A DNA stretch of 64,000 nt from Aggregatilineales bacterium (GTDB taxonomy: Bacteria > Chloroflexota > Anaerolineae > Aggregatilineales > UBA2796). Location of the stretch: the NCBI GenBank assembly GCA_965246845.1, contig CBDFFR010000004.1, positions 213,361-277,360 of the forward strand. Direction: 5' to 3'. The stretch's first letter is position 1, and each line of letters starts with the position of its first letter. Shown here one piece after another: positions 25,224 to 46,457 of this stretch. The notes under the pieces were generated by a model. The model was given only the letters and a program-made list of their open reading frames with translations, was not told where the DNA came from and searched no databases. The position numbers and the translations under genes are program-made.

Positions 25224-27460
25224 ATGCCCTGCCTCAATCTCTGGTTCATATCCCATTCGGCAACGAACACCCTTACGAACAGGAACCCATCGAGCGCACG
25301 CCGCGCCATCCGCTGGCCGGGCAACCTGTGCGGCTCGGTGTGCAAGCACAGCCGGAAACAGCGCAGGTGCGGGTCGAATGGCAGGTGAATGGCGTGCCAC
25401 AGACTGCAATCGCGGCGCAAAGGCTGGCAGATCGTGGGGGAGATGAGCGTAATGCGCAATATTCCGACCTGTGGCAGACTGAACTCCCCGCGCAACCTGA
25501 CGGCGCGAATGTGACGTACTGGCTTGTCGATGATACAGGCCATGCAACAGCACAATTTAAATATAAGGTACGCGGCTGGCAGGACGCGCCGCAGCTTGGC
25601 GTGAAGTGGCAGCAGGTGAAGCCGGGTGTTTGGCGCGGCAAGTTGAGCGACAGTGCAATGGGCGAGGTTCCATTATCGTTACTGCGCGCGGAACAGCTCG
25701 ACGGCGATCACGCGGAAACGCAGCGCGCCCGGCTGACCTTCGCCTCTCCAATTGATGAGGCATTTTATGGCTTCGGCGAGCGATTTAATGTACTCGATCA
25801 GCGCGGCCAACGGGTGGACGTGCGTTGCTTCGAGCAATACAAGACGCAATACGAAGGGACACGAACGTATATCCCGATGCCGTTCTTCGTCTCGTCGCGC
25901 GGGTACGGGCTACTGGTCGAGTCGCCGCGCTATATGGCCTTCGATCTGGCGGCGAGCGTAGCGGATACGTGGACACTCGAAGCGGAAACAGACGAAGACG
26001 GCGCGTTGGAATTCGTCTTATTCGTGAATGATCATCTGCTCGCAATCACGGGGATGTTCTGCGATTACACGGGCAAACCGGAGTTGCCGCCCGATTGGGC
26101 GTTCGGGTTGTGGATGAGTGGCAACGAATGGAACTCGCAGGCGCGCGTCGTGGAAGAGGTAAACGCGACCTTGCAGCACGACATTCCTGCAACGGTGCTG
26201 GTGATTGAGGCATGGAGCGATGAAGCGACGTTCTATATATGGAACGATGCGCAATATTTGCCGCAAGCGGGCGCAGAGCGTTTTCGCTATGCCGATTTCA
26301 CCTTCCCACCAGATGGCAAATGGTACGACCCGAAGGCGATGATCGATTGGCTTCATTCGCTCGGTATACGGATCATCCTCTGGCAGGTCCCGGCATTCAA
26401 GAAAGCGGACGCGCCGCAGGCGCAGCACGACGCCGATACCGCGCACTTTATCGAACATGGATACGCGGTCAAGGATGCGAATGGCGAACCGCACCGCATT
26501 CGCCCGTTCTGGTTTCGCGGCGGGATGCTCTGGGATGTGACGAACCCCGCTGCGCGCGAGTGGTGGCTCGGCAAGCGTGAATATCTGCTTGAAGACCTGC
26601 ACATCGACGGCTTCAAGACAGATGGCGGCGAACATCTGTGGGGTTATGATGTGCAGTTCGCGGATGGGCGCACAGGCGCGGAACTCTGGAATGAATATCC
26701 CCTGCAATATATCAAGGCGTATCACGAGTTTGCGAAGCAGCACAACCCGGACTCGCTCACGTTCAGCCGTGCCGGGTTCACGGGTGCAGGGCGCTTCCCG
26801 GCACATTGGGCAGGCGACGAGAACTCGACGTGGGAGGCGTTCCGTGGGTCGATCCTCGCGGGGTTGTCGGCGGGTATCTCCGGCATCCCGTTTTGGGGGT
26901 GGGACATCGGTGGGTTTAGCGGCGACATTCCGAGCGCCGAATTATACCTGCGTGCGGCGGCAATGGCGGCGTTCTGCCCGATCATGCAGTATCACGCGGA
27001 GTACAACGCGCACCAATTGCCGCGCCGTGATCGCACACCCTGGAATATCGCGGAGCGCACCGGAGATGAGCGCGTCATTCCGGTTTTCCGAAAGTTCGTG
27101 AAACTGCGCGAACAGTTGATGCCGTACATTTTGAAGGAGGCAGCATATAGCGCGGAGACGGGTCTGCCGATGATGCGAGCGCTGCCGCTGGTCTACCCGA
27201 ACGATGTGGCTTGCCGAGCATTCCCGTACCAATATCTTTTCGGTCGTAATCTGCTGGTCGCGCCCGTGACGGAGCCGGGCGAGGAAACATGGCGGGTCTA
27301 TCTACCGGTGGGGGAATGGACCAATTACTGGACGGGTGAGCGTGTGGAAGGCGGGCAGGTGATTACGCGCGATGTAGCGCTGGATGTAATTCCGGTGTAC
27401 ACGCGCACTGGTTTCACCCAAACACCTCATACGCAATCAACTCCAGTTCCTCCGCTTTGA
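25220..27460 (+). CDS. Glycoside hydrolase family 31 (alpha-glucosidase/alpha-xylosidase-like)
   Basis: The ATG at 25220 overlaps the GH15 stop (ATGA). Motifs GLWMSGNEW, IDGFKTDGGE and HWAGDENSTWE. Confidence 0.8.
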   Translation: MNALPQSLVHIPFGNEHPYEQEPIERTPRHPLAGQPVRLGVQAQPETAQVRVEWQVNGVPQTAIAAQRLADRGGDERNAQYSDLWQTELPAQPDGANVTYWLVDDTGHATAQFKYKVRGWQDAPQLGVKWQQVKPGVWRGKLSDSAMGEVPLSLLRAEQLDGDHAETQRARLTFASPIDEAFYGFGERFNVLDQRGQRVDVRCFEQYKTQYEGTRTYIPMPFFVSSRGYGLLVESPRYMAFDLAASVADTWTLEAETDEDGALEFVLFVNDHLLAITGMFCDYTGKPELPPDWAFGLWMSGNEWNSQARVVEEVNATLQHDIPATVLVIEAWSDEATFYIWNDAQYLPQAGAERFRYADFTFPPDGKWYDPKAMIDWLHSLGIRIILWQVPAFKKADAPQAQHDADTAHFIEHGYAVKDANGEPHRIRPFWFRGGMLWDVTNPAAREWWLGKREYLLEDLHIDGFKTDGGEHLWGYDVQFADGRTGAELWNEYPLQYIKAYHEFAKQHNPDSLTFSRAGFTGAGRFPAHWAGDENSTWEAFRGSILAGLSAGISGIPFWGWDIGGFSGDIPSAELYLRAAAMAAFCPIMQYHAEYNAHQLPRRDRTPWNIAERTGDERVIPVFRKFVKLREQLMPYILKEAAYSAETGLPMMRALPLVYPNDVACRAFPYQYLFGRNLLVAPVTEPGEETWRVYLPVGEWTNYWTGERVEGGQVITRDVALDVIPVYTRTGFTQTPHTQSTPVPPL

Positions 27461-30400
27461 CCTGCTCGAAGGTGGAGGGGCGCGCGACCTCGCGGTACAG
27501 GTCGTTCTCGATGAAGAACTCGTCAAGCGCGCGGATGAGCGTAAGCGTGTCCTGCTGCTCACGGTTGCTTGCTTGGATGGCCTTCAGGTGCGTGTCCTTG
27601 CGGAACGGATCAAGCGAGACGGTTTGCAGGGTGTCCGTGACGCGCTTGCGCAGCGCGTCCAGCCCGGCCTGACCTTCCGGCGTGTCGATGGGTGCGGAGA
27701 ACAACCCGGTCTGGTTGATAGAGGCGGCCAGATCATTGTTTAGCCTGCCGAGTCGCGGCGGGATGCTGCGCGCCCGAACAGCGCTGTTGATTTCCTTGAG
27801 GACGTCATCGGTGGCGCGCTCAAGCAGGTCGTAGACCTCGAAGCCGGACGGCAGGACACGCTTCTCGTTCATCGGCGTGAGGAGGTAGCGGAAAAGTCGG
27901 CGCTTATCGGAGATGATCTCGCCTTCGTTGGTGTACAGCCGCCAGAAGTGACGGTCGCCCGCTATAAACGCGAAGAACACGCCGGAGGGTCGCGGCGACT
28001 TCGCGATGCCAGAGCCGATTCCTTTCGGGATGGCGCGCACACGCTCCAGGCCGACCTGTTGCAGGAAGATCGTCAGGGGCAGCTTCATCTCGTCGGTGGA
28101 GACGAGTTCGGCATCACGTTCGAGTTCTTCCACGAAGGACGAGTCGCCCGCGCGCAGCTTACGAAGCTGATCCAGCGAGCGCGTGCCAATGACTTCACCC
28201 AGCACACTCGCATCCAGGCCGACGGTGGTATCTATCGCGCGGATACGCTCTTGCAATCGCTCGACCAGACCGAGCAGGCTCTCCAAGCCCTGCTGCGGGA
28301 AGCAGTTGTAGATGTCGAGTTCCGCGAACTGCGTACCGAGTCGGTCGATGCGGCCTGCGCGCTGGATCATGCGGATGGGCGTCCAGTGCAGGTCGAAGTT
28401 GACGATCACGCCTGCATCTTGCAGGTTCTGGCCTTCGGAGAGGACATCGGTAGAGATCAGGATGTCAATTTCAGGTTGATTGCTGAGGACGCTCTGCACC
28501 GTCTCTTCCGCGCCCTTGTTGGCGATGGGAGCGAAACGCCGCACCAGCGATTCACGGTTCGCGCCATCGGAGCCGCCGTGTATCACTTCGATGATGGGTG
28601 CGCGGCTCCATTTCGATTGCCAGTGCGGATCGTTGCGGAGGGCATCGTAGACATACTGTGCGGTATCGCGATAGTAGCTGAACAGGAGGACTTTTCGGTT
28701 CGCGAGTTCGCCACCGAGCAGGGCTTTGACTTCGCTGAGTTTAGTGTCACGCTTGCTTTCGTCGTCGAGGCGCTGGATCAGGTTCACTTTGTCGAGGATG
28801 GCATCCAGTGCTTCAATGTCGCGTTCCAATTCGCGGCGGATTTTGCGCAAGTCGTACTGCCCGATTTCGACCTCTTCCAATGTGTCGATCAGTGTGGCTA
28901 CGTTTTCGCTGCTGTCGTCCTCTGCGCCTTCGATGGCGAGCAGCTTGCGGTTGGCGGCGCTATCGAGCAGACGATTTTGCGAGATCAGGATTTGGTAGAA
29001 GCGTTCCTGATATTCGCGCTGCTTCTCGATGCTCATGCGGAACGCGGTCAGTGAACTTTCGAGGCGTTTCAGGTAGAGCGTTTTGAGGATGGCGATGATC
29101 GCTTCCGAACTTTGCAGCTTCTTCTTCGATTCGGCGTCGCGGTCGCCCTTGCGGTGCTGCTCGATGTTGAAGCTGATCAGGTGCAGGCTATCGATGAGGG
29201 TGGCGATCTGCTCGTAGAAGCCGTCGTAGGTGGTCATCAGGTCGTAGTTGACACTGTGCAAGCGACGCTCCGGGAAGTGGATTACGCCTTTGCCGGGCAG
29301 CCGGATTTCCTCGCCTGCCGCTTGCCGCTGCTTGACATCCTGCCGGGAGCGGCGCACCATCACCTGTTCGAGCAGGGTGAAGATGTCGAGGCCGCCGTCC
29401 TGCACTTCGCGGAAGAAGCCTTTCAGGTTGCGGATGCCGTAGTCGCGGAAGAAAGCGTCCTGTCCGCGCGTGATGAACGAGAGCTGGTTGTAGAGGTCCC
29501 AGATAGAGTTGTTGATCGGCGTGGCGGTCATCAGGATGACCGTTTTTTCGGGTTTACCCGTCGCGAGCAGCTTCATCAGGTTGCCGTAACGACCCGTACC
29601 AGGATTGCGGAAGTTGTGCGACTCGTCCACGAGGATTACATCATAGCCGTTGAACGCCTTCCAATCGAAGTTGGCGCGGCCAAGCGACTCCTGCGAGATG
29701 ACATCGGCTTTGATGCCGTACTCGTTCAGCTTCGGCTCCCAGATCAGTTCGCGAAGCTGCGCGGGACAGATGACCAGCCCTTTCGGAATGAACCCCTTGC
29801 GGCGCTTGCCAAGGACGTAGTGTTCCAGCAAGCCCATCCCGATGTACGTCTTGCCGAGGCCGACCGCATCCGAGACGATGACGCCGCCGTGACGGTCAAT
29901 CAGGCGGATCGCCTCGCGCAAGCCTTCCTGCTGGAAGCTGGCGAGTTCGACGCCGAGCCGCGCCTCGATGCTTTCCGGGAGGATGCGGTCTTTGAAGTAT
30001 TCGTAGAGGACTTTGATGAAGACATCGTGCGGCGTCCAGCGCGCACCGTCGAACTTCGAGTCGCGGAGCATGTCGATCAGCAGGCGCTTCTGGTCCTCGC
30101 CTTCGGACCACATTCCCGCATACCAGTTCTCGCGCAGGTCACGCACGACGGGACCTTCCTGCCGGGTGATGTTGAGTTCGGCGCGGCGCGTCATACCCGA
30201 AGGCGTGAAGTTGCTGCTGCCGACGATGGCAAAATTGGGCATGAGGTAGGCTTTGGCGTGCAGGAACGAGCGCGCATAGAAGCGGACTTCGGCGCTGTCG
30301 CGTTCGAGAAAAGCACACAGGTCGTCAATGAGGCGAGCGTATTCACGGTTGAGCGGCAATTTTTCGAGGTCGCCACGCAGCTTGTCGCGGTAGTAGCGGC

Positions 30401-30647
30401 GCAGGTCCAGCGCGCCTTCGGCGGGGTCGGTGGAGTCAAGTTCGGGAGCGCGTCCAAGGAGCAGACGGAAGCGCTTCAAGCCGCGCAAGCCATCGGCCAA
30501 CATGCGCCATACTTCCGGCTCGAAGAAACCGCTCGCGATGTCAAGTTCATCCTGTCCGACGTTGACGAGCAGTTCATTCAGGACGGTCACGAGGCGACGC
30601 TCTACGGTGGTGTTGTCGATGTAGTCCGGCGGGTAGTATTGGGGCAT
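27414..30647 (-). CDS. PLD(HKD)-nuclease + SNF2-family helicase fusion (DrmD-like)
   Basis: HKD motif FLHAKAYLMPNFAIVGSSNFT. SNF2 motifs DAVGLGKTYIG (I), LVDESHNFRN (II), MTATPINN (III) and QRAGRIDRLG (VI). Confidence 0.8.
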   Translation of the reverse strand: MPQYYPPDYIDNTTVERRLVTVLNELLVNVGQDELDIASGFFEPEVWRMLADGLRGLKRFRLLLGRAPELDSTDPAEGALDLRRYYRDKLRGDLEKLPLNREYARLIDDLCAFLERDSAEVRFYARSFLHAKAYLMPNFAIVGSSNFTPSGMTRRAELNITRQEGPVVRDLRENWYAGMWSEGEDQKRLLIDMLRDSKFDGARWTPHDVFIKVLYEYFKDRILPESIEARLGVELASFQQEGLREAIRLIDRHGGVIVSDAVGLGKTYIGMGLLEHYVLGKRRKGFIPKGLVICPAQLRELIWEPKLNEYGIKADVISQESLGRANFDWKAFNGYDVILVDESHNFRNPGTGRYGNLMKLLATGKPEKTVILMTATPINNSIWDLYNQLSFITRGQDAFFRDYGIRNLKGFFREVQDGGLDIFTLLEQVMVRRSRQDVKQRQAAGEEIRLPGKGVIHFPERRLHSVNYDLMTTYDGFYEQIATLIDSLHLISFNIEQHRKGDRDAESKKKLQSSEAIIAILKTLYLKRLESSLTAFRMSIEKQREYQERFYQILISQNRLLDSAANRKLLAIEGAEDDSSENVATLIDTLEEVEIGQYDLRKIRRELERDIEALDAILDKVNLIQRLDDESKRDTKLSEVKALLGGELANRKVLLFSYYRDTAQYVYDALRNDPHWQSKWSRAPIIEVIHGGSDGANRESLVRRFAPIANKGAEETVQSVLSNQPEIDILISTDVLSEGQNLQDAGVIVNFDLHWTPIRMIQRAGRIDRLGTQFAELDIYNCFPQQGLESLLGLVERLQERIRAIDTTVGLDASVLGEVIGTRSLDQLRKLRAGDSSFVEELERDAELVSTDEMKLPLTIFLQQVGLERVRAIPKGIGSGIAKSPRPSGVFFAFIAGDRHFWRLYTNEGEIISDKRRLFRYLLTPMNEKRVLPSGFEVYDLLERATDDVLKEINSAVRARSIPPRLGRLNNDLAASINQTGLFSAPIDTPEGQAGLDALRKRVTDTLQTVSLDPFRKDTHLKAIQASNREQQDTLTLIRALDEFFIENDLYREVARPSTFEQVKAEELELIAYEVFG

Positions 30648-30740
30648 GGTGTGCGGCTCTGTTCGCGATTAGGACGAAGTTGTGCGTAGTATGACACACT
30701 TCGCTGCGAAGCAGGCTGCGATTGTGATTACAAAAGCATT

Positions 30741-31031
30741 TTAGTCGCCCTGATGCGCAAGCACAATTTGCGATGGCGGTATACCCGCCGCAATAAGCGC
30801 ATCCTCAAGCGGTCTATCGGTCGTGTCCGTCTCAATGATAACCTTCTCGCCGTCGATGCGCGTCAGGAGCATGATGTGCGGTTCAATTTCACGTTTGAGC
30901 GGCACGACAAGCACGGTATCGATCTTCTGCGCGTTATCGTGAAGATAATGCAGTTTCGCATTGAGCGAACGCCCGGCATAGCTCGCTACAACGCGGCTTG
31001 TGGTTGCTTCCAAATCAATTATTCGCTCCAT
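30741..31031 (-). CDS. xisI: XisI-family protein
   Basis: 96 aa. The pattern ...RIDGEKVIIETDTTDRPLEDALIAAGIPPSQIVLA resembles XisI (DGKIWIQxDxTE...L...GVPxxDIVLAF). Overlaps xisH by 13 nt. Confidence 0.6.
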   Translation of the reverse strand: MERIIDLEATTSRVVASYAGRSLNAKLHYLHDNAQKIDTVLVVPLKREIEPHIMLLTRIDGEKVIIETDTTDRPLEDALIAAGIPPSQIVLAHQGD

Positions 31032-31441
31032 CGCACGATCTCCTCTTTTACCAGATCAACTACCAGCAACGCGATCCCGTGTTCCTTGAGAATTGTCACA
31101 ATCGCGTTATTGAAATATTTTGAATACGTGCTTTCCGGGACGGCCATGTAGATCGGTAACGCAAATCCCTCACGTTCCGATATTCCTTTGTACACGACAC
31201 ACTGCCCTATCGCTCGATGAAGTTCCGGTGTTTTCTTCGGGAGCGTAAAACATTTCACCTCAACTCCAATCTCGAATGCCTGTCGTCCGTTGGCAGGACG
31301 TGAAGCTGTCAGATCGATGTGCAGGTCATTCCCAAACGCATCCGTGATATGCAATGGGGTTGGGTCTACAACCCATTCCGCTTTGCTCAATGCACTCGCG
31401 ACCTGAAAATGGCATGTATCGAGTTCCGGCAACGGGTTCAC
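31019..31441 (-). CDS. xisH: XisH-family protein (restriction-endonuclease-like fold)
   Basis: 140 aa. FH..VA.AL.K.EW.V..DP..I......L.IDL.A...., AFEIGVEVKCF, HRAIGQCVVYK and IYMAVPESTY match the XisH family pattern as I recall it. Confidence 0.65.
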   Translation of the reverse strand: MNPLPELDTCHFQVASALSKAEWVVDPTPLHITDAFGNDLHIDLTASRPANGRQAFEIGVEVKCFTLPKKTPELHRAIGQCVVYKGISEREGFALPIYMAVPESTYSKYFNNAIVTILKEHGIALLVVDLVKEEIVRWSE

Positions 31442-31512: not shown

Positions 31513-32415
31513 GTGACGTATAATCACAGCACACATAGCCGAGTCAAGCGCTCTATAAACAAGCAAAAAAAGGGAACTGGACGACGGGGCATCGAGTGGA
31601 CCGATTACACATGGAACCCTGTCGGTGGTTGTCAACATCGCTGCCGCTGGACAATGCCCGATGGGACAGTCGCGGAATGCTACGCGGAAACTGTCGCGGA
31701 GCGCATCGCACAGGCATCCTATCCACATGGCTTCGAGCATCATTACTGGCGACCGGAATCGCTCAACGAGCCGCTCAAAGTCAAAGCACCTTCGCGTATC
31801 TTCCTCGACTCGATGTCGGACCTGATGGGGCATTGGGTCCCGGAAGAGCAGATTTTGCAGGTTCTGGATGTCTGCCGCCGCGCACCCTGGCATCAATTCC
31901 AGCTCCTCACCAAAAACGCGCCGCGCCTGCGCGAATTCGAGTTCCCATCGAATGTGTGGGTTGGAGTGAGCGCCCCGCCGACCTCAATGTTTGGAAAGCC
32001 GCTGACCTTTCGGCAGCAGCAGCGAATGGTTGAAACAATGATGTCTGTTCTGGAAAAAGTTGATGTTCCAGTGCGCTGGATGAGCATCGAACCCCTGAGT
32101 TTCGATATTGCGCCGCTGCTCGTCGGAAGCCCGCTTGAATGGGCGGTTATTGGAGCAGCAACCAATGGCGTCGCGACCTACCAGCCGAAAGAAGAATGGG
32201 TGACAAACGTGTTGAGTGTCCTCGACGCTCAGAATACCCAAGTGTTCTTCAAGGGCAATCTGGATTGGCAGCCTTGGTGCGAAAATTTGCCGATTGTTAT
32301 GTCACCGGTGGCAACCTACAACGTTTTCGATAGTAATTCAAAAGTTGTATTTCAATCTCAGAAAAATTTGGACGAATATACGGCCATCCCTCGTCGTCCT
32401 CAGGCGCATGTGTGA
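31513..32415 (+). CDS. Phage Gp37/Gp68 family (DUF5131) protein
   Basis: IEWTDYTWNPVGGCQHRCRWTMPDGTVAECYAE (Cx3Cx10C), FLDSMSDL, LLTKN and SIEPL. GTG start at 13 of 31513. The 3' tail overlaps the convergent HEPN-like ORF by 119 nt. Confidence 0.7.
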   Translation: MTYNHSTHSRVKRSINKQKKGTGRRGIEWTDYTWNPVGGCQHRCRWTMPDGTVAECYAETVAERIAQASYPHGFEHHYWRPESLNEPLKVKAPSRIFLDSMSDLMGHWVPEEQILQVLDVCRRAPWHQFQLLTKNAPRLREFEFPSNVWVGVSAPPTSMFGKPLTFRQQQRMVETMMSVLEKVDVPVRWMSIEPLSFDIAPLLVGSPLEWAVIGAATNGVATYQPKEEWVTNVLSVLDAQNTQVFFKGNLDWQPWCENLPIVMSPVATYNVFDSNSKVVFQSQKNLDEYTAIPRRPQAHV

Positions 32416-33082
32416 CTGGCGCGTGTTCTACAATCAGGTCCAGTAATTTGTCAAGCGGCGTATCTTTTTCAAAACCCGTACCATAACTAAGATAAGCAAA
32501 GGAGCTGTAGGCTGGTGAGCAAAGCAGGTTGAATAGATGTTCAGCAGAGTTCATCAAGGCTCTTAAATTCGACAACTCTATATTGTCGAATTTCTTCTCA
32601 TATTTTGGATTGAGGCTCAGATGTGCAAAACGGTTGTTCCTTAATGCCTTAATTTGCTCACTCAGACTTTGAATTTGCTTGTCAAAACTAGAGCGCTTCA
32701 AATGCTCATTAAATTTGCTGATACTCTCTTGGTCGCGTAGGCGGGAGCTAATCTGGGTGCGAAAGTTCCCAATCGTAAGAACGTCTTTGCGAGGATCGAC
32801 AAAGAGGGTAAATGTGCTAACAATTACATATTCAAGCAGCGTAACTTTAACGACTTTCCAGAAGACGTAATCTTCTGGTACAAGAAATAGACCGAATGGA
32901 AATCTATGCAGACGTTCAAAGATAAGCAGACGCATTTCGAGGGCGATCATTTCCGTATACAACGACTCCTGTAGACGTTCATATTCAGGAGCCCACTCAG
33001 GTTGCAGCAGCGCTCGTATGTCAAGCAGGTTGTCTTCGTCGTCATCTGGAAGAGCGAAAACTATTCCATCTAAGCTGTCCAT
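32297..33082 (-). CDS. HEPN-like (AbiU2-type) protein
   Basis: 261 aa, AT-richer than its neighbours. Rx4-6H motif in IKALRNNRFAHLSL, of the R[N]xxxAH type seen in Abi/HEPN RNases. Overlaps the upstream ORF by 13 nt. Confidence 0.45.
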   Translation of the reverse strand: MDSLDGIVFALPDDDEDNLLDIRALLQPEWAPEYERLQESLYTEMIALEMRLLIFERLHRFPFGLFLVPEDYVFWKVVKVTLLEYVIVSTFTLFVDPRKDVLTIGNFRTQISSRLRDQESISKFNEHLKRSSFDKQIQSLSEQIKALRNNRFAHLSLNPKYEKKFDNIELSNLRALMNSAEHLFNLLCSPAYSSFAYLSYGTGFEKDTPLDKLLDLIVEHAPVTHAPEDDEGWPYIRPNFSEIEIQLLNYYRKRCRLPPVT

Positions 33083-33663
33083 GGATGTGTCTTCGCAATA
33101 TCGATGCCTTGCAAGTGCTTCGAGAGACGACCCAACCGCGCCGCAAACTGCTGATTCATATATGCCCTGATTTCCTGTAGTAGCGTATTTACAGCCAGTG
33201 TCATCGCCTGCTCATTGTTCTCACCCTTTACGTGAACGTGTACATCTCTTTGCCCGAACCCCGCCCCTGAAAGGGTCAAAGATGCAGGCGAGAACGAGCG
33301 AACACGCGGACCAATTGATGAAATGCTTGAAATTTTCAGGGCAACAGGTTGCCCGCGCGCTCCGGGATCGTCGATACCACGCGCGATGAGGCCAAGCGCA
33401 TGAGAATACTGATTTTCAAAAAAGACAACAAAATCATTGTAGAGTGTCATCATCACCTGAATTGTTTGCTCCTGCGTTTGTCCATCGAAAAACACCTTGA
33501 AAGTTGCCTTGTCATTTAGCTCCGTTGAGAAGAAACGCAGTTCGGAGTGCCAGCGCTCCGAAGTTGGTGCATTCTCATTTACGTAGGTTGTGATTTCGGC
33601 TGTTACAGCCTGACTGTTCGCTAATTGCACAGTCGAGACAGGTTTTGCGTTGTGCATCGTCAT
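33070..33663 (-). CDS. Hypothetical 197-aa protein translationally coupled to the methyltransferase
   Basis: The ATG at 33663-33661 overlaps the MTase stop (ATGA). The listed 252-aa ORF is an N-terminal extension into the MTase gene. No motif recognised. Confidence 0.5.
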   Translation of the reverse strand: MTMHNAKPVSTVQLANSQAVTAEITTYVNENAPTSERWHSELRFFSTELNDKATFKVFFDGQTQEQTIQVMMTLYNDFVVFFENQYSHALGLIARGIDDPGARGQPVALKISSISSIGPRVRSFSPASLTLSGAGFGQRDVHVHVKGENNEQAMTLAVNTLLQEIRAYMNQQFAARLGRLSKHLQGIDIAKTHPWTA

Positions 33664-36600
33664 TCCTCGTTGTTTTCGATTGCTGCCAAAGTTTCTGTCA
33701 TCACGCCCGCCGTCCCCTCCACCAGCGCGATCTCCGCCTCCGTCAACCCATAGGCCGTATAGACCGCCGCGTTCAACTCCGCTTCCAGCTTCGACAGCCG
33801 CGCCGCATCGTGCGCCGCCGCGAGGCACGCACGCGCGAGGTCTGCGATTTGCGCGCGGAGTGGGTCGGGTGGGTTGGGGATGGGGAGTTGTTCGACATAT
33901 TGAGTAAAGAAGCGCAAGTATCCGCCTCTTATTTTCTGATCCGACAAATTACGATAGAGCCATTCAACAACGGTTGAATTTAACACGCCTAAAACGTAAA
34001 AATCAGCAATTGGTAGGAAGTAAACAGTATTCGCGCAAAATGTACCTTGTTCATCTATAACAAAACGAAAGTCATTCGCAATGTCTGGATATACTATTTT
34101 GGGCATGTCAAATTGATGGTAAATGCCCATTTGTGGTTGTTGAAGCTCATACCAAGCGTGATTTGCACTGGTGGCTCGTGCCTCCAACTGTGGCTTGAAA
34201 CGTCGCAGGTGTTCTTCTATTGCAGGGTAAGCTATGATGTTCAACCCTCTTTTAGCGAAAATCAAATAACTACCTTGATGACCAATCTTCCAGCGCTTAA
34301 TGTCCTTCCCGACGACAAACGGCTTAATAACTTCCGCGCTCTTCGAGTCGGCGGCGATGAGTTCCGCGCGTTTGTCGCCATCAATGACGAAAGCCTCATT
34401 TAATCCTGTAACTACGCCACGAAATATTTTTCCATCGACGTAAGTTTTAAGTGGCGCTCCTAAATGCTTGATCTTTTCGAGCAACGTAGCATTTCGCTCG
34501 TTGGTGAGCGTCCATTGGGAGCCATTTAGCGCAGTTTGCGGCAGTGATTGGCCTGTTAATTTTATAACGGCACGTAAATCCATATCATCGCGCCAATCTT
34601 CAATTTTCGTGAAGTGTGTTATGTCACCTCGTTGTTTGTGTAGCACCAATACGAGTGGATAGGTTGTCGCGTCTTTGAACACAGGCGCATCATCGAAATC
34701 TGTCAACTGCTGAACGTGAAATTGCGCCAAGTATTTACGCAAATTCGCGCCGTATCCACCTTTGATGAACTTATTCGGGCTGATAAATGCGAGTGTTCCA
34801 CCATCGCGGAGAAGTTGAATTGCACGCGCATAGAAATAGACGTAAAGATCGGCGCGCGCGGAGAACACTTCGGGGTAGGTTTTCTCTAGTTCGGCACGTA
34901 TGCCCTTAAATTTATCCATGCTTACGTAAGGCGGGTTGGCGACCACAATATCGAAGCCGCCGCGAGCCGCGAAAACCGTGTGGAAGTGCAGGCGGTAGAG
35001 GAAGAAGGGGAGCGGCTTCGTCAGGTCGCGCATCTGCGCTTCGATTTCGCCGAGGCGGGCATAGCGGACGGCTGCGGAGTCGAGGGTGCGTTTATCCTTC
35101 GCGGAGAGGACGCCGTTTTGCTGACCGCTTTTCTTTCCATAGATATTGACCTGCTCTTTGGCGGCGTCAATCTTCACGGCGAGGGCGTTGAGGGCGATCT
35201 CGCGTTCGCGGATGACAATTTCGGCGCGCAGTTCGCGGCGTTCATCGGGCGCGGCACGGAAGAAACGGCGGTGCAGCGTATCGAAGTCCTCACGCGAGCG
35301 CTGCACGGCCTTTTCACTCTCAAAGAGCGCCATTTTTCCCTGCACGGCGTCGCCGATCAGGTTTTGCTGGACGAGGGCTTGCGGGTCGGCGGCGAAGAGC
35401 GATTCGGAGCCAGCGGTGAGGATCGACTCGCCATCCAGCGTTTCGATCAGGCTGTCGCCAACCATCAGCTTGTATTCGAGGTTGGGGAGCGGGCGGGCTT
35501 GTTCGAGGGTCTGATCGACGACGAGGGCGAGCCACAGGCGAAGCTGCGCGACCTCGACGGCTTCCGGCTTGAGGTCCACGCCATAGAGCGTGTCGCGGAT
35601 GATGGCTTCCTTCCAATCGGCAACCTGCGCGGGCGTGACGGCGACTCCGTTGGCGAGGGCGCAGGCACGGCGCAGGCGCAGAATTTCGGTCATCATACCG
35701 ATCAGGAAGCTGCCGGAGCCGACGGCGGGGTCGAGGACGGTGAGGGTATCGAGGGCGGCGGAGATGCGGTCGGCTTCGGCGGGGGTCAGCGCGGTGGGTT
35801 GCTCCGCATCGAAGAGGGCTTGCGCACGTTCGCGGGGAACATCGGCGCGGGTCGCGAGGTAGCCGGCGAGCGCTTCCTGACACATATAGGCGACGATCAC
35901 GCGCGGGGTGTAGAAGGAGCCAGATTGCCCGCGATCCTGCGCCTGGAGCTGGTTCTCGAAGACCTTGCCCAACATTTCGGGGTCCACCGCGACATCGAGT
36001 TCGAGGGGCGTGTCTTCACTGACGGTGAAGTTGTAGCGGTTGAGGAAGGCGAGAATGCCCGTGTCGCCCATCGGGTCGAAGAGCGAGTCCGGGAGGATGA
36101 GCGTCCCGGCGGGGTCGCGGGCGGGGTCGAAGAGACCTCCATTGAGGTATGGGATTGTTTCCCAGCCGCGCGTCCATGAGGGCAAGGCGCGGCGGTCGGG
36201 CGGGGTGTTCATCGTCTCGAAGAAGACCGGGGCGAGGACCTCCGTATAATAGTGGAAGGTCTCGACGTTCGGCGGGGTGTTATCCGCGTCGTGGCGCAAC
36301 ATGCAGAGGCGGTATTGTTCGGTGAGGAAGCGCTGCCCGCCCGCAAGCCAGCCCTTGCGCTGGAGGAAGTAGAGGAACATCAGGCGTCCGAGGAGGCGTT
36401 GGGCGAAGGCGCGCAGCTTGTCGGCTTCGTAGAATTCGCGAACGCCGGGGTTGTACTTTCGGGCGGCTTCGATGACGGCGCGGAAGAACTCGCTGTACTG
36501 GCGGTCGAACTTGCGGGTGAGGGCAGTCACGCTGAAGGCGTCGCGTTGCGCATCGTAGACCTGGATGCCGCCCCGGTTCCATGCGGCGAGGGTGCTCAGG

Positions 36601-37019
36601 GTATCGACATCGTGGCGGGTCGCGTCGGTGGTGACGAGTTTGAGTTTGTTGAGGCGCAAGCTGGATTTGGTGGCGGAGCCTGCGAAACGCGGGTCAATGA
36701 AGACGACTTCGCGGTAATCAGCGGTGACGACGAGCAGACAGGTTCCGCGACTGAGCAGGTTATAGGCGATGCCGCGCAGGTGGGATGGGCGCGGATCGCG
36801 GGTTTCGAGCAGGTAAATGGTGTGCAGGTCGCGTTTGGCAAGGATGTACAGCTTCGCGATGTCAGCGCGTTCGGGGGCGGTGAAGTCGAAGGCGTCCAGA
36901 CCGTCGGCCTCGAAAGGGTCTGCGTCACCGGGTTGGTAGCCGAGGCGCTCAAAGAGCGTGACGACATCGGCGGCGGTGTGGAGCGCGAGGTGAGCGAAGG
37001 TGATCGAGTCGTTGGGCAT
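33660..37019 (-). CDS. Large N6-adenine DNA methyltransferase, Eco57I/PglX/DrmMI-like, with no obvious nuclease motif
   Basis: SAM motif VLDPAVGSGSFL. Catalytic motif DIVVANPPYVSM. N-terminal region ...RLMFLYFLQRKGWL... is typical of the type IIG/BREX-PglX-like family. C-terminal TRD-like region. Confidence 0.8.
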   Translation of the reverse strand: MPNDSITFAHLALHTAADVVTLFERLGYQPGDADPFEADGLDAFDFTAPERADIAKLYILAKRDLHTIYLLETRDPRPSHLRGIAYNLLSRGTCLLVVTADYREVVFIDPRFAGSATKSSLRLNKLKLVTTDATRHDVDTLSTLAAWNRGGIQVYDAQRDAFSVTALTRKFDRQYSEFFRAVIEAARKYNPGVREFYEADKLRAFAQRLLGRLMFLYFLQRKGWLAGGQRFLTEQYRLCMLRHDADNTPPNVETFHYYTEVLAPVFFETMNTPPDRRALPSWTRGWETIPYLNGGLFDPARDPAGTLILPDSLFDPMGDTGILAFLNRYNFTVSEDTPLELDVAVDPEMLGKVFENQLQAQDRGQSGSFYTPRVIVAYMCQEALAGYLATRADVPRERAQALFDAEQPTALTPAEADRISAALDTLTVLDPAVGSGSFLIGMMTEILRLRRACALANGVAVTPAQVADWKEAIIRDTLYGVDLKPEAVEVAQLRLWLALVVDQTLEQARPLPNLEYKLMVGDSLIETLDGESILTAGSESLFAADPQALVQQNLIGDAVQGKMALFESEKAVQRSREDFDTLHRRFFRAAPDERRELRAEIVIREREIALNALAVKIDAAKEQVNIYGKKSGQQNGVLSAKDKRTLDSAAVRYARLGEIEAQMRDLTKPLPFFLYRLHFHTVFAARGGFDIVVANPPYVSMDKFKGIRAELEKTYPEVFSARADLYVYFYARAIQLLRDGGTLAFISPNKFIKGGYGANLRKYLAQFHVQQLTDFDDAPVFKDATTYPLVLVLHKQRGDITHFTKIEDWRDDMDLRAVIKLTGQSLPQTALNGSQWTLTNERNATLLEKIKHLGAPLKTYVDGKIFRGVVTGLNEAFVIDGDKRAELIAADSKSAEVIKPFVVGKDIKRWKIGHQGSYLIFAKRGLNIIAYPAIEEHLRRFKPQLEARATSANHAWYELQQPQMGIYHQFDMPKIVYPDIANDFRFVIDEQGTFCANTVYFLPIADFYVLGVLNSTVVEWLYRNLSDQKIRGGYLRFFTQYVEQLPIPNPPDPLRAQIADLARACLAAAHDAARLSKLEAELNAAVYTAYGLTEAEIALVEGTAGVMTETLAAIENNEE

Positions 37020-37169
37020 GGTGTGCTTCGGAGAATATTTGGTGGCGGTAGTTTACCGCGTTCGGCAGGGGCATGTGACTGAGTTGGGGAATCGTTATGA
37101 GTTTAATACGACAGGTGAGCGCAGGTACACATCGCACGCCATAAAATAGGGACAAAACGCGAGTGGAAA

Positions 37170-37919
37170 TTGATGGCATCCGAAACAAGATTTGGCATTC
37201 TACGAAATGTGCTGCGCGCATTCGGGCTTCCGCAAGACGCCGTGGATGATGTTGTGAACTGGATTGTGGACCTGCTCGCGGGTAAGAGCGAATCTGCTGG
37301 GCAACAGTCGCCGGAGTTTCCGTATCATTTGCGTCCGGGGCTGCTGTCGCCTGCGGAGCTGTGTTTCTATGAGACGTTGAAGTTGGCCGTCGATGAGCGC
37401 GCGGTGGTGAATGCGAAGGTCGGCCTGGGTGACATCTTCATGGTCAAAAGCGACGATCAGAGCCGTTACCGTATTTACACAAACAAAATCGACCGCAAGC
37501 ACGTCGATTTTCTGCTGTGTGACCCGAAAACCATGCGCCCGCTGGTGGGCATCGAACTGGATGATAAGAGCCATCAGCGGGCAGATCGGCAAGCGCGCGA
37601 TGAATTCATTGACAAGGTCTATCAGGCTGCGGGACTTCCCATATTGCATGTTCCCGCGAAGCGGAGCTATGAAGCAGGGGAGGTGGCTGCACAGATTGCA
37701 TCCTACTTGAGTGCTGCACCTGTTTCCCTCGTCCAAGTGCCTCCGGTCCGAGCGGAGTTACCTTCCATCTCAGTGCCAACACCGCAAGGGTCGCCACGTT
37801 GTCCCAAATGCGGCGGGGAGATGGTCCTGCGGACGGCCAAGAGCGGCGCGAATGCGGGTGGGCAGTTTTGGGGCTGCGCGAGTTATCCGGGCTGCCGTTC
37901 GATGCTGCCGTACCGGTGA
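37170..37919 (+). CDS. DUF2726 (endonuclease-like) protein with C-terminal topoisomerase-type zinc ribbon
   Basis: LLSPAELCFYETLKLAV...KHVDFLLCDPKTMRPLVGIELDDKSH (DUF2726 pattern). CPKCGGEMVLRTAKSGANAGGQFWGCASYPGC (C4 zinc ribbon). Confidence 0.65.
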   Translation: MMASETRFGILRNVLRAFGLPQDAVDDVVNWIVDLLAGKSESAGQQSPEFPYHLRPGLLSPAELCFYETLKLAVDERAVVNAKVGLGDIFMVKSDDQSRYRIYTNKIDRKHVDFLLCDPKTMRPLVGIELDDKSHQRADRQARDEFIDKVYQAAGLPILHVPAKRSYEAGEVAAQIASYLSAAPVSLVQVPPVRAELPSISVPTPQGSPRCPKCGGEMVLRTAKSGANAGGQFWGCASYPGCRSMLPYR

Positions 37920-45102: not shown

Positions 45103-45387
45103 CTAAAAACCGAACATCTCAGCGGATTGTTCAACGATGCGGCTGGTCGCCTCCGGCTCGGCAGGACTGCTGATGTTCGGACTTTTACCTGTGCGCTTGT
45201 CCGGTCGGGGCATACTGCTGATGGTTCGTCCGGGTGCTGGATGTGTATCACGAAAAAGGTAGGAGACCAGCGCCTGCCGGATGACCTCTCCGGCACGACG
45301 GTGACGCAACAAATCAGCCAGCGCGTCGTAGAGCGCTGCCTCCTGCGGGTTGTCCATGTTCAGCGAGAACTCCACCCGGCGGTTCAT
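45103..45387 (-). CDS. ParR-like small DNA-binding partition adaptor (putative RHH)
   Basis: 94-aa ORF overlapping the 3' end of parM by 4 nt. The position and size are those of parR. N-terminal beta-strand/helix pattern RRVEFSLNMDNPQEAALYDALADL. Confidence 0.45.
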   Translation of the reverse strand: MNRRVEFSLNMDNPQEAALYDALADLLRHRRAGEVIRQALVSYLFRDTHPAPGRTISSMPRPDKRTGKSPNISSPAEPEATSRIVEQSAEMFGF

Positions 45388-46457
45388 GAGGCTGACGCAG
45401 ACTCGCGCTCCCGACGAACCAGAAACCCGAATGCCCCTTCTACATTCCCGCGCCGGGTGTCGGCGGAAAGCACCCAGTGGCTCGCCTTGCCGTTGTTCAG
45501 ATAGGGCTGCAGCAGCGCTGCGCCACCCCCGCCGAGGATGACCGTCCGAATGTTCTTGCCGCGCAGTGTGCTGTTCACGAAGTTCAGGATGCGCTCGGCA
45601 AGCGCGGAGAGTTCCAGATGAACGCTTTGTGTCAGGTCATAGGTTTGGTTGTTGACGATGATCTGCTCGCTGCCCAGCGCCTCATCGACCTGCCACACAT
45701 CCAGGCCGTATGCGCCTTGCCGCCGCAGGTCTTCCAGCACCGCCGCTGCGACTGTCCCCATGCCGATGTCCGCTGACTGCGCGCCACCAACCACATACAC
45801 ACCATCCTGCATCAGCACCACGTCGGTTGTGTAGTAGCCGATGTCTACAATTGCGGTACTGCCGCGTGTGTAGCGCTCGTCCATCGTGCCGTCCTCAAGG
45901 AACGCCGCCAACCAGAACGTGCCGAGTCCTTCCGGGATAATGATCAGGTCGGCGGGTTGAACTTGTGCATACAACGACGCCCCGTTCAGCCCGTGTATCT
46001 GATACTCCCCTTGCAGCAGGTCACGAACTTCTTTGTCTTTCTGGACGTTGAACTCGCCGACCGGGATGGAAATCACTCCACGCGGGTACAGCACGCCGTC
46101 GCCTGTCTTGTGGCCGAAGGTGCGCCACAACGCGCTTGCAAAGAGCAGCCGATAGCGGTCCGAGGTATACCGGATACGACTAGTCAGGGCAGTCGGCTCG
46201 GTATCACAGAGCAAGCGCACGTCGTCACCAAAGACGTACTTTGTATTATCGATCTGGATGACCAGCCGATCTGCAACGCTGACCAGTGTATTCCGTCGAC
46301 TGAGGACACCATAGATAGAACGGTATTCGGCAGACACATCGTAGCTGCGCAGCTTGCAGAAACCATTGCCCAGGTCGAACGAGTACAGCGGCTTGCAGTT
46401 CTCGTCAGGATTCACGATACGCACTTCCTGTTGTATCACTTTGGCTTTCTTTGGCAT
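45384..46457 (-). CDS. parM: ParM/StbA-type actin-like segregation ATPase
   Basis: Phosphate-1 FDLGNGFCK, connect PEGLG, phosphate-2 VDIGYYTTDV, adenosine VILGGGGAA. Confidence 0.75.
   Translation of the reverse strand: MPKKAKVIQQEVRIVNPDENCKPLYSFDLGNGFCKLRSYDVSAEYRSIYGVLSRRNTLVSVADRLVIQIDNTKYVFGDDVRLLCDTEPTALTSRIRYTSDRYRLLFASALWRTFGHKTGDGVLYPRGVISIPVGEFNVQKDKEVRDLLQGEYQIHGLNGASLYAQVQPADLIIIPEGLGTFWLAAFLEDGTMDERYTRGSTAIVDIGYYTTDVVLMQDGVYVVGGAQSADIGMGTVAAAVLEDLRRQGAYGLDVWQVDEALGSEQIIVNNQTYDLTQSVHLELSALAERILNFVNSTLRGKNIRTVILGGGGAALLQPYLNNGKASHWVLSADTRRGNVEGAFGFLVRRERESASAS

Follow-up and report, generated by a model that had tools for sequence, protein, structure and literature searches.

A predicted HEPN_AbiU2 ribonuclease and the orphan protein p197 as candidate cargo between a DNA methyltransferase and a PLD-SNF2 helicase in Chloroflexota

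A DNA methyltransferase (MTase) and a fusion of a nuclease with a helicase (PLD-SNF2) are the two constant genes of the locus described here, and the two small genes following the MTase gene, which encode the orphan protein p197 and the predicted ribonuclease HEPN261, are, in the best reading of the sequence comparisons, exchangeable cargo within the MTase/PLD-SNF2 operon. The core would probably be a MANTIS/Type-III-like restriction-modification (R-M) pair of Chloroflexota, with p197 and the HEPN protein as an embedded back-up abortive-infection (Abi) module in the style of PrrC. The original prediction had seen in the MTase, p197 and HEPN genes an undescribed unit combining R-M-like sensing with abortive infection. 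The arrangement is of a known kind and no new three-gene system, as both HEPN genes in R-M loci and intra-operon cargo have already been described. The locus is part of a stretch of 64,000 nucleotides from an Aggregatilineales bacterium (contig CBDFFR010000004.1), which is referred to as the window.

Organization of the locus and the end of the methyltransferase gene

The genes of the minus-strand operon, and one gene opposite to them, are the following.

33660..37019, minus strand: MTase, core gene 1, a gamma-class N6-adenine DNA methyltransferase of 1119 aa (Eco57I, TaqI_C and MmeI_Mtase)
33070..33663, minus strand: p197, cargo gene, orphan, 197 aa (ATG at 33663) or 195 aa (ATG at 33657)
32297..33082, minus strand: HEPN261, cargo gene, predicted RNase of the HEPN_AbiU2 family, 261 aa
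32621..32641, minus strand: codons of R148-N-N-R-F-A-H154, the Rx5H HEPN active-site motif as predicted from motif conservation
31513..32415, plus strand: DUF5131 (phage Gp37/Gp68-like) gene, on the strand opposite to the operon
31019..31441, minus strand (that of the operon): XisH-family gene, 140 aa, further cargo
30741..31031, minus strand: XisI-family gene, 96 aa, further cargo
27414..30647, minus strand: PLD-SNF2, core gene 2, a PLD/HKD nuclease + SNF2/SF2 helicase fusion of 1077 aa

The three minus-strand ORFs at 33660-37019, 33070-33663 and 32297-33082 are as originally reported, and so is the overlap of 13 nt between the p197 and HEPN261 ORFs (33070-33082). The XisI and XisH genes likewise overlap by 13 nt. 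On the opposite strand, the DUF5131 gene covers 119 nt of the 3' end of HEPN261. It is missing from the sister locus L001, as is the XisH gene, and its absence there points to a later insertion into the cargo region; since it faces the other way between HEPN261 and the helicase gene, one transcript across the whole locus is doubtful here. A promoter and terminator scan gave counts no different from those of shuffled sequence, a repeat search returned nothing structural, and neither a conserved recombination site nor a promoter was found in the DNA 5' of the helicase gene.

The MTase matches the Pfam families Eco57I (122 bits), TaqI_C (68 bits) and also MmeI_Mtase, and its best PADLOC match is the type IIG RM-MTase (REase_MTase_IIG, 5e-118). 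TaqI_C is the target-recognition domain (TRD), and the motifs of gamma-class N6-adenine MTases are present; two of them, DPAVGSG (SAM) and NPPY (catalytic), are invariant across 25 homologues. Among the same 25 sequences, no conserved D...ExK nuclease motif is found in the N-terminal domain; D64 occurs in 17 and E72 in 21 of them, and the position of the "K" is taken by D, S, R or Q. A single-polypeptide type IIG enzyme of the MmeI/Eco57I kind would also need an N-terminal PD-(D/E)xK motif, and of this no conserved form was found, although MTase motifs and TRD are present.

The stop codon of the MTase gene had been described as overlapping the start of p197 in the sequence ATGA. This sequence is indeed found at 33663-33660, in frame with the 197-aa ORF, but an alternative ATG at 33657 has the better Shine-Dalgarno spacing (GAGGA-N6-ATG) and matches the N-terminal length of the remote homologues P0124 and P0125; the public protein record of p197 is also the 195-aa form (P0003; sources NCBI and ENA). 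Depending on which start is used, the two genes overlap by 4 nt or are 2 nt apart, and both arrangements are compatible with coupling. A last sense codon ending in A suffices to create an ATGA at a TGA stop; one is also found at the MTase end in L013 and L018, though no gene begins there. In each of the four AbiU2-bearing lineages there is an overlap between the MTase stop and the first cargo gene, and the junction GA(G/A)GAATGAC is common to the window, L009 and L014. This steady coupling of the first cargo gene to the MTase stop, whenever AbiU2 is present, suggests that its expression is tied to that of the MTase.

The small genes had further been noted as richer in AT than the MTase gene, and their GC contents (49.2% for p197 and 43.1% for HEPN261, against 58.0% for the MTase gene) bear this out. 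The low-GC tract, though, starts already within the MTase gene at about position 35000, the part for the N-terminal 670 aa having 63.9% GC and that for the C-terminal 449 aa 49.2%.

The constant core and its variable interior

The PLD-SNF2 protein contains the Pfam domains PLDc_2, SNF2-rel_dom and Helicase_C. An N-terminal HKD-type motif (HAK...GSSNF) and the SF2 helicase motifs GLGKT, DESH and QRAGRIDRLG are intact, and the best PADLOC match is "HKD+Snf2" (2.6e-64). An MTase gene followed by a PLD-SNF2 gene on the same strand is found in all nine distinct lineages with enough flanking sequence, namely in the window and in L002, L006, L009, L013, L014, L015, L017 and L018; the sample comprises only about nine lineages, among which L014 and L017 are related elements. 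Kept in all nine (67-92% identity), PLD-SNF2 is the obvious effector of the MTase loci. Located 3 kb downstream and outside 32297-37019, it had been missed in the original prediction.

The interval between MTase and PLD-SNF2 measures 1.5-6.6 kb, and its contents differ in every locus, also between L013 and L018 and between L014 and L017, two pairs with 92% identity of the helicases. The cargo comprises HEPN proteins (AbiU2, Abi_2, Ymh), PIN toxin pairs, Schlafen, OLD-TOPRIM and GmrSD proteins, and kinases. AbiU2 is found in four of the nine lineages, and when Abi_2 and Ymh are counted as well, five have a HEPN gene; other cargo (PIN, DUF3800, Abi_2, OLD-TOPRIM, unknowns) occupies the same position in five of the nine loci. 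A HEPN gene on the same strand between MTase and PLD-SNF2, as in the window, recurs in L001, L009, L014 and L017; in L009 and L014 the AbiU2 gene directly follows a related MTase gene with an ATGA overlap, and AbiU2 is also present in L017. Pairs of the toxin-antitoxin (TA) type use the slot in L002 (83-aa gene and PIN) and L015 (DUF433 and PIN), PIN genes are found there in L006, and XisH/XisI in the window. The cargo of L006 includes proteins of 284 aa and 495 aa that belong to no known family. Profiles of p197 and HEPN261, when compared by hhalign with 18 proteins from the cargo of related loci and one encoded next to P0125, 19 in all, revealed no relationship.

Turnover of the effector is seen in L001. 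Over the 3' end of p197 and the first ~85 nt of the HEPN gene, L001 and the window are ~99% identical; beyond this point the identity of the HEPN genes falls abruptly to ~60% at the nucleotide level (63% aa), and for the N-terminal 39 residues of the helicase, whose gene in L001 directly follows the HEPN gene, it is back to 92% aa.

The two small proteins and alternative readings of the locus

HEPN261 matches Pfam HEPN_AbiU2 (PF18734) over residues 34-206 with 33.0 bits (gathering score 26.8, E 5.2e-8). The L009 homologue reaches 41.6 bits, and precomputed PF18734 matches exist for the L014, L017 and P0002 proteins. Membership of the HEPN_AbiU2 family, as originally proposed, is supported by these profile matches. 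The motif RNNRFAH occupies residues 148-154 (32641-32621), and R148, N150, A153 and H154 are invariant in five sequences, which are HEPN261 and four homologues of 30-63% identity; with the Rx5H motif invariant, the objection that it might not be conserved among homologues falls away. The AbiU2 family is listed as retaining Rx4-6H (PMC3710099). Only one close relative of HEPN261 was found among 5.8 billion proteins. In the Chloroflexota AbiU2 subfamily the proteins extend C-terminally beyond the Pfam domain by a conserved stretch (PED.E.W...R...I..LN.YR). An AlphaFold2 model based on a single homologue was unusable (pLDDT 36.2, pTM 0.23); only its all-helical secondary structure agrees with a HEPN fold. 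HEPN261 is a stand-alone protein in which no ATPase domain was detected by Pfam or NCBIfam. A profile search against PDB sequences, tblastn against plasmids and a scan of viral contigs with the HEPN alignment returned no match.

No family match was obtained for p197 in Pfam (E<=0.1), NCBIfam, PADLOC or PHROGs, and none to an antitoxin, MNT/NTase or HTH family, while a word-indexed protein search returned p197 alone. An exhaustive HMMER search of 1.84 billion representatives yielded no more than three remote homologues (116-192 aa), two of which are nearly full-length and one of which has 116 aa; two cadherin-repeat giants from this search were judged to be compositional false positives. Metagenome and viral scans with the family alignment, as well as tblastn against plasmids and phages, gave no match. 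The AlphaFold2 model obtained with the three remote homologues predicts a beta-sheet and long helices at low confidence (pLDDT 55.6), and Foldseek found no PDB match for it at E<0.4. P0124 adjoins an IS element and has no MTase gene upstream on a contig of only 2 kb. The contigs of both P0124 and P0125 are short and provide little context.

Alongside an MTase, p197 is seen in one lineage only (window and L001), and AbiU2 in L009, L014 and L017 has no p197-like neighbour, from which it follows that p197 is no general AbiU2 regulator. In L001 the last 80 aa of p197 are 100% identical to those in the window while the HEPN body has been replaced, and this pattern would argue against tight co-evolution of p197 and HEPN.

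These observations bear on a possible, if rather doubtful, alternative, according to which p197 and HEPN261 would be an autonomous TA-like or Abi cassette lodged in an operon hotspot, where it would act, or persist by addiction, independently of MTase and helicase. Type II TA pairs typically show the order seen here, with a putative antitoxin first, and an overlap like the one of 13 nt; bona fide TA-type pairs are found at the same position in L002, L015 and the window (XisH/XisI), with PIN genes in L006, the cargo turns over faster than the core, and in comparable hmaABC hotspots, systems complete in themselves are found, among them Septu and PARIS (PMC11232893). Yet the AbiU2 genes of L009 and L014 start on the MTase stop and have no partner gene before them, and a p197-like gene is missing from L017, so that AbiU2 does not need p197 as an antitoxin; p197 resembles no antitoxin, MNT or HTH family, its C-terminus stayed unchanged when the HEPN body was swapped, and the first cargo gene is always coupled to the MTase stop when AbiU2 is present. 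A HEPN-MNT TA system of type II/VII was rejected, as p197 has no NTase match and an MNT partner is thus missing.

It is highly improbable that the MTase, p197 and HEPN genes make up a three-gene system of their own with the MTase as sensor and the HEPN protein as sole effector, as was originally proposed. Such a system would accord with the tight coupling of the three genes, with the lack of a conserved nuclease motif in the MTase itself and with the occurrence of AbiU2 after related MTases in L009, L014 and L017. However, the proposal is already contradicted by synteny: p197 is absent from the MTase loci of all other lineages, five of the nine loci have other cargo and no AbiU2, the HEPN gene of L001 leads directly into the helicase gene, and it is PLD-SNF2, not the small genes, that is kept as the constant partner in all nine.

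Even less is to be said for MTase and PLD-SNF2 being displaced DrmMI- and DrmD-like parts of a DISARM system, split off by a mobile element of ~16 kb, with the small genes as DISARM accessories. A DrmE-DrmA-DrmB-DrmC cluster does lie in the window at 53.5-62.1 kb, on the strand of the MTase operon; it ends at an IS3-type element, no MTase gene was found between it and the gene for the 1119-aa MTase, and recombinase, primase and ParM genes are located in between. The MTase matches the PADLOC model of DrmMI (1e-42), and the helicase matches those of DrmD (5.6e-33) as well as NCBIfam DISARM_DrmD (140 bits). These likenesses to class 1 DISARM (DrmD, DrmMI, DrmA, DrmB, DrmC), to which the PLD domain may be added, are weak to moderate and their scores lie far under the family cut-offs, which is 610 bits for NCBIfam DrmD; the best PADLOC matches are type IIG RM-MTase and "HKD+Snf2", not Drm models. 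Class 1 membership was rejected, as the core of DrmA and DrmB is not adjacent to the DrmD/DrmMI-like genes. The DrmE/A/B/C genes of the window are more than 16 kb away, past mobile-element genes, and six annotated loci (L002, L013, L014, L015, L017 and L018, with L006 and L009 left out) have no DrmA, DrmB or DrmE within 10 kb upstream. Work by Ofir et al. in 2018 is reported to have made DrmE the mark of class 2 DISARM, in which the MTase is of the C5 type.

The least probable explanation is that the HEPN-like protein would be no RNase toxin but would bind RNA or protein without catalysis, as an accessory or regulator of the operon. Some HEPN families such as MtlR are non-catalytic (PMC3710099), the AlphaFold2 model (pLDDT 36) gives no confirmation of the fold, and the Pfam score is only 6 bits over threshold. 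Yet R and H, the catalytic residues, are invariant at ~30% identity together with the polar residue at +2, AbiU2 is among the families with Rx4-6H retained (PMC3710099), and RNase toxins of other families (PIN, Schlafen, Abi_2, Ymh) occupy this position in other loci.

Known systems and the proposed mechanism

HEPN genes, AbiU2 being named among them, were described in "R-M operons" by Anantharaman et al. in 2013 (PMC3710099). In the PrrC model, a HEPN RNase encoded in an R-M locus is masked by the R-M proteins and freed when a phage blocks restriction (PMC3710099). BREX and BREX-related (BR) loci embed HEPN, PIN, Schlafen and OLD back-up effectors (PMC12839542), and about two-thirds of the Hma loci have further defence genes within the operon, in the interval from the SNF2-helicase effector to the methylase (PMC11232893). 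With PrrC/EcoprrI as the classical example, the linking of R-M-like sensing to abortive infection is not the novelty it had been taken for.

The likeness to PrrC in the type Ic system EcoprrI (hsdMSR) consists in the gene for a HEPN-superfamily RNase inside an R-M operon, for which a second-line suicide logic has been proposed. [quoted passage not shown] With AbiU of Lactococcus lactis (AbiU2, PF18734), HEPN261 shares the above-threshold Pfam match and Rx4-6H, but the match is very distant. AbiU1, the partner of AbiU2, is absent at the HEPN261 locus, and so is a Sel1-repeat gene, a partner reported for the family (PMC3710099).

The core resembles MANTIS (Gao_RL, Type-2 BR; MtsA-D) in combining an N6-adenine MTase with an MtsD-like protein made of an N-terminal HKD/PLD nuclease and an SF2/SNF2 helicase; R-M-like logic is shared, and BR loci also embed HEPN, PIN, Schlafen and OLD auxiliary effectors. 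MANTIS differs in having the DUF499 AAA+ ATPase MtsA and the DUF3780 protein MtsB, both required for its methylation; neither was found among the window neighbours or in the Pfam lists of six related loci (L002, L013, L014, L015, L017 and L018). The MTase of the window, moreover, has a long N-terminal domain and belongs to the Eco57I/TaqI_C type. Hma (HmaABC; Type-1 BR) has a comparable insertion hotspot inside its operon (PMC11232893), but a C-terminal PD-(D/E)xK nuclease, the HmaC ATPase and Septu, PARIS and GmrSD-like cargo. In type III and type ISP R-M systems, a Mod-like MTase with TRD is likewise combined with a Res-like helicase-nuclease, and ATP-driven communication would be expected; here, the nuclease is PLD instead of PD-(D/E)xK and N-terminal to the SNF2 motor, the genes are kilobases apart, and the pair is known from sequence. 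Restriction enzymes with PLD nuclease and ATPase are represented by CglI, NgoAVII and SauUSI.

From these comparisons, restriction activity, RNase activity, a silencing partner and a trigger may be inferred as follows. The MTase with its specificity domain would mark self DNA, while the PLD-SNF2 fusion would translocate on unmarked DNA in an ATP-dependent manner and cut it. The two core genes flank a hypervariable cargo bay, filled here with p197, HEPN_AbiU2, XisH/XisI and the reversed DUF5131 gene. The p197 and HEPN genes would share a transcript with the MTase gene and be coupled to it in translation. Most likely, the HEPN protein would serve as a second-line abortive-infection RNase. As long as the cell is uninfected, p197, association with the R-M proteins, or the two together would hold it inactive; its release would follow when restriction is disabled or overwhelmed by a phage, in the manner of PrrC and EcoprrI.

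A more far-reaching and unlikely proposal is that HEPN RNases of the AbiU2 type serve as dedicated guard effectors of an unnamed minimal MTase/PLD-SNF2 restriction system of Chloroflexota. The HEPN protein would be made by termination-reinitiation at the MTase stop, so that its dose would track that of the MTase, and p197 would represent a new adaptor or antitoxin family tethering the RNase to the MTase or silencing it there. The operon interior would be an exchange site for such guards, and the two-gene system would be MANTIS-like, working free of the MtsA and MtsB loaders.

If p197 and HEPN261 truly are the back-up module of an R-M core, the locus would provide compact and testable layered immunity, with DNA restriction and an RNase suicide switch built on two core genes, in a phylum whose defence systems have barely been studied. 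It would also imply that a PLD-SNF2 effector of the MANTIS kind can rely on a type IIG-like methylase and dispense with the AAA+ loader. No new category is opened by the locus. Across genomes, the cargo bay amounts to a catalogue of candidate back-up effectors, several of which belong to no known family, namely p197 and, in L006, the proteins of 284 aa and 495 aa.

A conserved methyltransferase/PLD-SNF2 pair

The conserved functional unit of this locus would, judged from sequence and synteny, be a restriction-modification-like pair of the Mod/Res type, formed by a 1119-aa methyltransferase (MTase) and a 1077-aa PLD-SNF2 helicase-nuclease. Two further proteins, the 197- or 195-aa orphan protein p197 and HEPN261, a 261-aa member of the HEPN_AbiU2 family, appear to be accessory cargo, encoded in a hypervariable bay within the operon of that pair. 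The original prediction had combined MTase, p197 and HEPN261 into an undescribed three-gene defence system; the second core gene lies outside the region it had considered. The genes concerned are:

33660-37019, minus strand: MTase, 1119 aa (ORF scan)
33070-33663, minus strand: p197, 197 aa from the ATG at 33663
32297-33082, minus strand: HEPN261, 261 aa
32641-32621, minus strand: RNNRFAH motif of HEPN261 (residues 148-154)
31513-32415, plus strand: DUF5131 protein (phage Gp37/Gp68-like; PADLOC PDC-M41B/M30B), its tail overlapping the 3' end of the HEPN261 gene by 119 nt
31019-31441, minus strand: XisH
30741-31031, minus strand: XisI
27414-30647, minus strand: PLD-SNF2 protein, 1077 aa, with an N-terminal PLD/HKD nuclease domain and an SNF2 helicase

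The MTase, predicted to be an N6-adenine DNA methyltransferase of the gamma class, also carries a specificity domain. Pfam assigns it Eco57I, TaqI_C and MmeI_Mtase, the PADLOC model "type IIG REase-MTase" matches it at 5e-118, and its nearest solved relatives are CamA and M.BseCI (residues 687-1092). Two motifs, DPAVGSG (SAM-binding) and NPPY (catalytic), are invariant across 25 homologues, and a conserved D...ExK nuclease triad is absent from the N-terminal domain; with this combination, the protein resembles a methylase/specificity subunit devoid of a nuclease of its own. Its family is large and mostly found in Chloroflexota (Anaerolineae). The PLD-SNF2 protein is matched by the PADLOC model "HKD+Snf2" (2.6e-64), and its motifs HAK...GSSNF, GLGKT, DESH and QRAGRIDRLG are intact. 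The translation starts of both core genes (30635-30654 and 37007-37026) have a 20-nt stretch of 85% identity in common (GCACACCATGCCC-AA...; MPQYY and MPNDS), which may reflect chance or a shared initiation context.

Flanking regions were compared for nine distinct lineages, comprising the window and the related loci L002, L006, L009, L013, L014, L015, L017 and L018. A PLD-SNF2 orthologue follows the MTase gene on the same strand in all nine, with identities of 67-92% among the helicases and 48-71% among the MTases. p197 occurs only in the window and in L001, a 1.3-kb metagenome contig (1-1318) sister to the window locus. The trio is not conserved as a unit. The interval between the core genes measures 1.5-6.6 kb and differs in content in every locus, even where the helicases are 92% identical (L013/L018; L014/L017).

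Cargo between the MTase and PLD-SNF2 genes, in order
Window: p197; HEPN_AbiU2; DUF5131 (opposite strand); XisH; XisI
L002: 83-aa gene; PIN; 39-aa gene; DUF3800
L006: unknowns of 284 and 495 aa; HTH; PIN (214 aa); 96-aa ORF; PIN (133 aa); 93-aa ORF
L009: HEPN_AbiU2; Schlafen; 141-aa ORF; Ser/Thr kinase; GmrSD_N (with a sub-threshold SAV2148-type HEPN match, 19.6 bits vs 26.4)
L013: Abi_2; SH3 protein
L014: HEPN_AbiU2; HTH; two unknowns
L015: DUF433; 80-aa gene; PIN; 84-aa gene
L017: Ymh (HEPN family); HEPN_AbiU2; zinc-ribbon protein; 91-aa gene
L018: OLD-TOPRIM ATPase

HEPN_AbiU2 is encoded in four of the nine lineages and any HEPN family in five. Wherever AbiU2 occurs (4/4), there is an overlap between the MTase stop codon and the first cargo gene; the window, L009 and L014 have the junction GA(G/A)GAATGAC in common. 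The first two cargo genes of L006 (13413-15766 of that locus) encode the 284-aa protein, with a 32-nt MTase overlap, and the 495-aa protein; neither belongs to a Pfam family or shows similarity to p197 or HEPN261, and both are candidates for further, uncharacterised MTase-coupled effectors.

p197, HEPN261 and the exchange of the HEPN body

The predicted ORFs were recovered on the minus strand, together with the ATGA overlap of MTase and p197, in which the ATG at 33663 is overlapped by the MTase stop TGA (33662-33660), and the 13-nt overlap of p197 and HEPN261. Taken mechanically, the p197 ORF is open up to a GTG at 33828. The true start is probably the second ATG, at 33657, because GAGGA is located 6 nt upstream of it, a 195-aa form is present in the public protein collection (P0003; sources NCBI and ENA), and the resulting N-terminal length equals that of the remote p197 homologues. 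The junction with the MTase gene is either a 4-nt overlap (ATG 33663) or a 2-nt gap (ATG 33657), and the two genes are coupled under either choice.

The small genes are AT-richer, as had been noted, with a GC content of 43% for HEPN261 and 49% for p197 vs 58% for MTase, but the low-GC tract starts within the MTase gene, near 35000. That gene is a mosaic in both composition and evolutionary history: GC falls from 64% (N-terminal 670 aa) to 49% (C-terminal 449 aa; C-terminal third, 33660-35000) at about 35000, and the closest homologue, the database protein P0005, has an identity of 90-100% in aa 1-600 but of about 50% in the C-terminal catalytic/specificity region. This pattern suggests swapping of the specificity domain, possibly along with downstream cargo.

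p197, which has no match in Pfam, NCBIfam, PADLOC or PHROGs, would represent an orphan family described here for the first time. When 1.84 billion representatives were searched exhaustively with HMMER, three true relatives came up, two of them near full length and the third of 116 aa (range 116-192 aa; identity 23-27%; E 1.7e-10 to 4e-5); two cadherin-repeat giants from the same search were treated as spurious. The contigs of the remote homologues are too short to tell much; on one of them the homologue adjoins an IS element and lacks an upstream MTase gene. Profile comparison found no p197 relative among 19 proteins, namely 18 cargo proteins of the related loci and the product of the gene beside the homologue P0125. 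The weak AlphaFold model (pLDDT 55.6) comprises a four-stranded sheet, a long helix, a disordered stretch, two short strands and another long helix, and has no fold match in the PDB.

The HEPN-like assignment of the 261-aa protein proved right, as it passes the Pfam HEPN_AbiU2 threshold (33 bits vs 26.8); its structure model is unusable (pLDDT 36). A single close relative was found among 5.8 billion proteins (P0002, 63%), and tblastn on the fetched loci added three at about 30% identity. In the alignment of these five sequences, R148, N150, A153 and H154 of the RNNRFAH motif are invariant, as are residues of a C-terminal extension beyond the Pfam domain (P227, E228, D229, E231, W233, R237...). 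HEPN261 may be placed in a divergent, hitherto undescribed AbiU2 subfamily.

Between L001 and the window, the 3' end of p197 and the first ~85 nt of the HEPN gene (codons 1-~28) are about 99% identical at the nucleotide level, and the remainder of the HEPN gene falls abruptly to about 60% (63% aa). The body of the putative HEPN effector has been exchanged as an allele, the first ~30 residues and p197 being retained. A sharp recombination breakpoint against L001 lies inside the HEPN gene, at 33013 of the window. In L001, the helicase gene follows 183 nt after HEPN, and the first 39 residues of its product are 92% identical to the window protein. The absence of DUF5131, XisH and XisI from L001 marks all three as recently inserted into the bay.

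A proposed second-line effector and the rival reading

Recurrence of HEPN in the first slot, its coupling to the MTase stop and the allelic replacement seen for the L001 HEPN body all fit a reading of HEPN261 as a second-line effector that evolves fast. On the model of PrrC/EcoprrI, the predicted HEPN RNase would be latent in healthy cells and would be unleashed once restriction is blocked or overwhelmed. Of the neighbouring genes, p197 is the most plausible candidate for a silencer or adaptor, though a weak one, since other AbiU2 genes in the MTase context lack such a partner and since p197 showed no accompanying variation when the HEPN body changed. In the main rival explanation, p197 and HEPN261 are a self-contained, toxin-antitoxin-like cassette that has settled in an insertion hotspot; it is favoured by bona fide toxin-antitoxin pairs occupying the same slot in other loci.

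An RNase effector within a restriction-modification-like operon is an established concept. AbiU2 has been classed as a HEPN with a conserved Rx4-6H motif, its contexts include "R-M operons", at least 16 HEPN clades were reported to be linked to restriction-modification, and a PrrC-like, multi-pronged model was put forward (Anantharaman et al. 2013, PMC3710099). HEPN, PIN, Schlafen and OLD "back-up" effectors are embedded in BREX and BREX-related loci, and Type-2 BREX-related systems consist of DUF499 and DUF3780 proteins, an N6-MTase and an HKD-SNF2 helicase (2026 BREX survey, PMC12839542). This same four-gene system, MANTIS, hemimethylates asymmetric sites, depending on MtsA and MtsB, and restricts via the dimeric PLD-helicase MtsD (MANTIS preprint). 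A hotspot for defence-gene insertion is found inside hmaABC (Liu et al. 2024, PMC11232893). Unlike MANTIS, the core pair of the window comes without DUF499 and DUF3780, and unlike DISARM, without adjacent DrmA and DrmB; it is, therefore, a member of neither. A limited literature search found no name for the two-gene MTase/PLD-SNF2 form, and what seems new is this minimal core in Chloroflexota with its rich cargo bay.

The surrounding defence island

Further defence and mobile-element genes of the window are:

16404-18416 and 50084-52039: two large serine recombinases
37170-37919, plus strand: DUF2726 and topoisomerase-type zinc-ribbon protein, divergent from MTase
38058-40100, plus strand: NERD and UvrD helicase (PADLOC "NERD+UvrD", 3.8e-30), divergent from MTase
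42027-44942: prim-pol/AAA_25 primase-helicase
45384-46457: ParM/Alp7-like actin
46461-46907: weak HU-like match, below the Pfam threshold
49546-50040: GNAT
52084-53183: IS3-type insertion sequence, at the end of the DISARM core, where the Drm methyltransferase would be expected
53469-54038, minus strand: PLD protein, probably DrmC (Pfam PLDc_2 only)
53995-55893, minus strand: DrmB, DISARM core
55896-59528, minus strand: DrmA, DISARM core (PADLOC 3e-151)
59480-62104, minus strand: DrmE, DISARM core
62196-63971: ABC-ATPase and ASCH protein, upstream of the DISARM core

No DISARM methylase was seen in the 64-kb window. The DUF2726/zinc-ribbon and NERD/UvrD genes are a candidate for another defence pair, which is not conserved beside the MTase in the other loci. 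With mobile-element genes all around the defence genes, the stretch between about 27.4 kb and the end of the window resembles a defence island that lies on an integrated element or next to one. Housekeeping genes for sugar transport and glycoside hydrolases occupy 20-27 kb. The MTase/PLD-SNF2 operon of L014 and L017 adjoins a gene for a TraG/VirD4-type coupling protein as well as HU, SSB and PAPS-reductase-like genes, so that it rides there on conjugative-element-like islands; in L014, it is also located beside a CBASS-like cluster (SMODS, E1/E2, JAB, SAVED).
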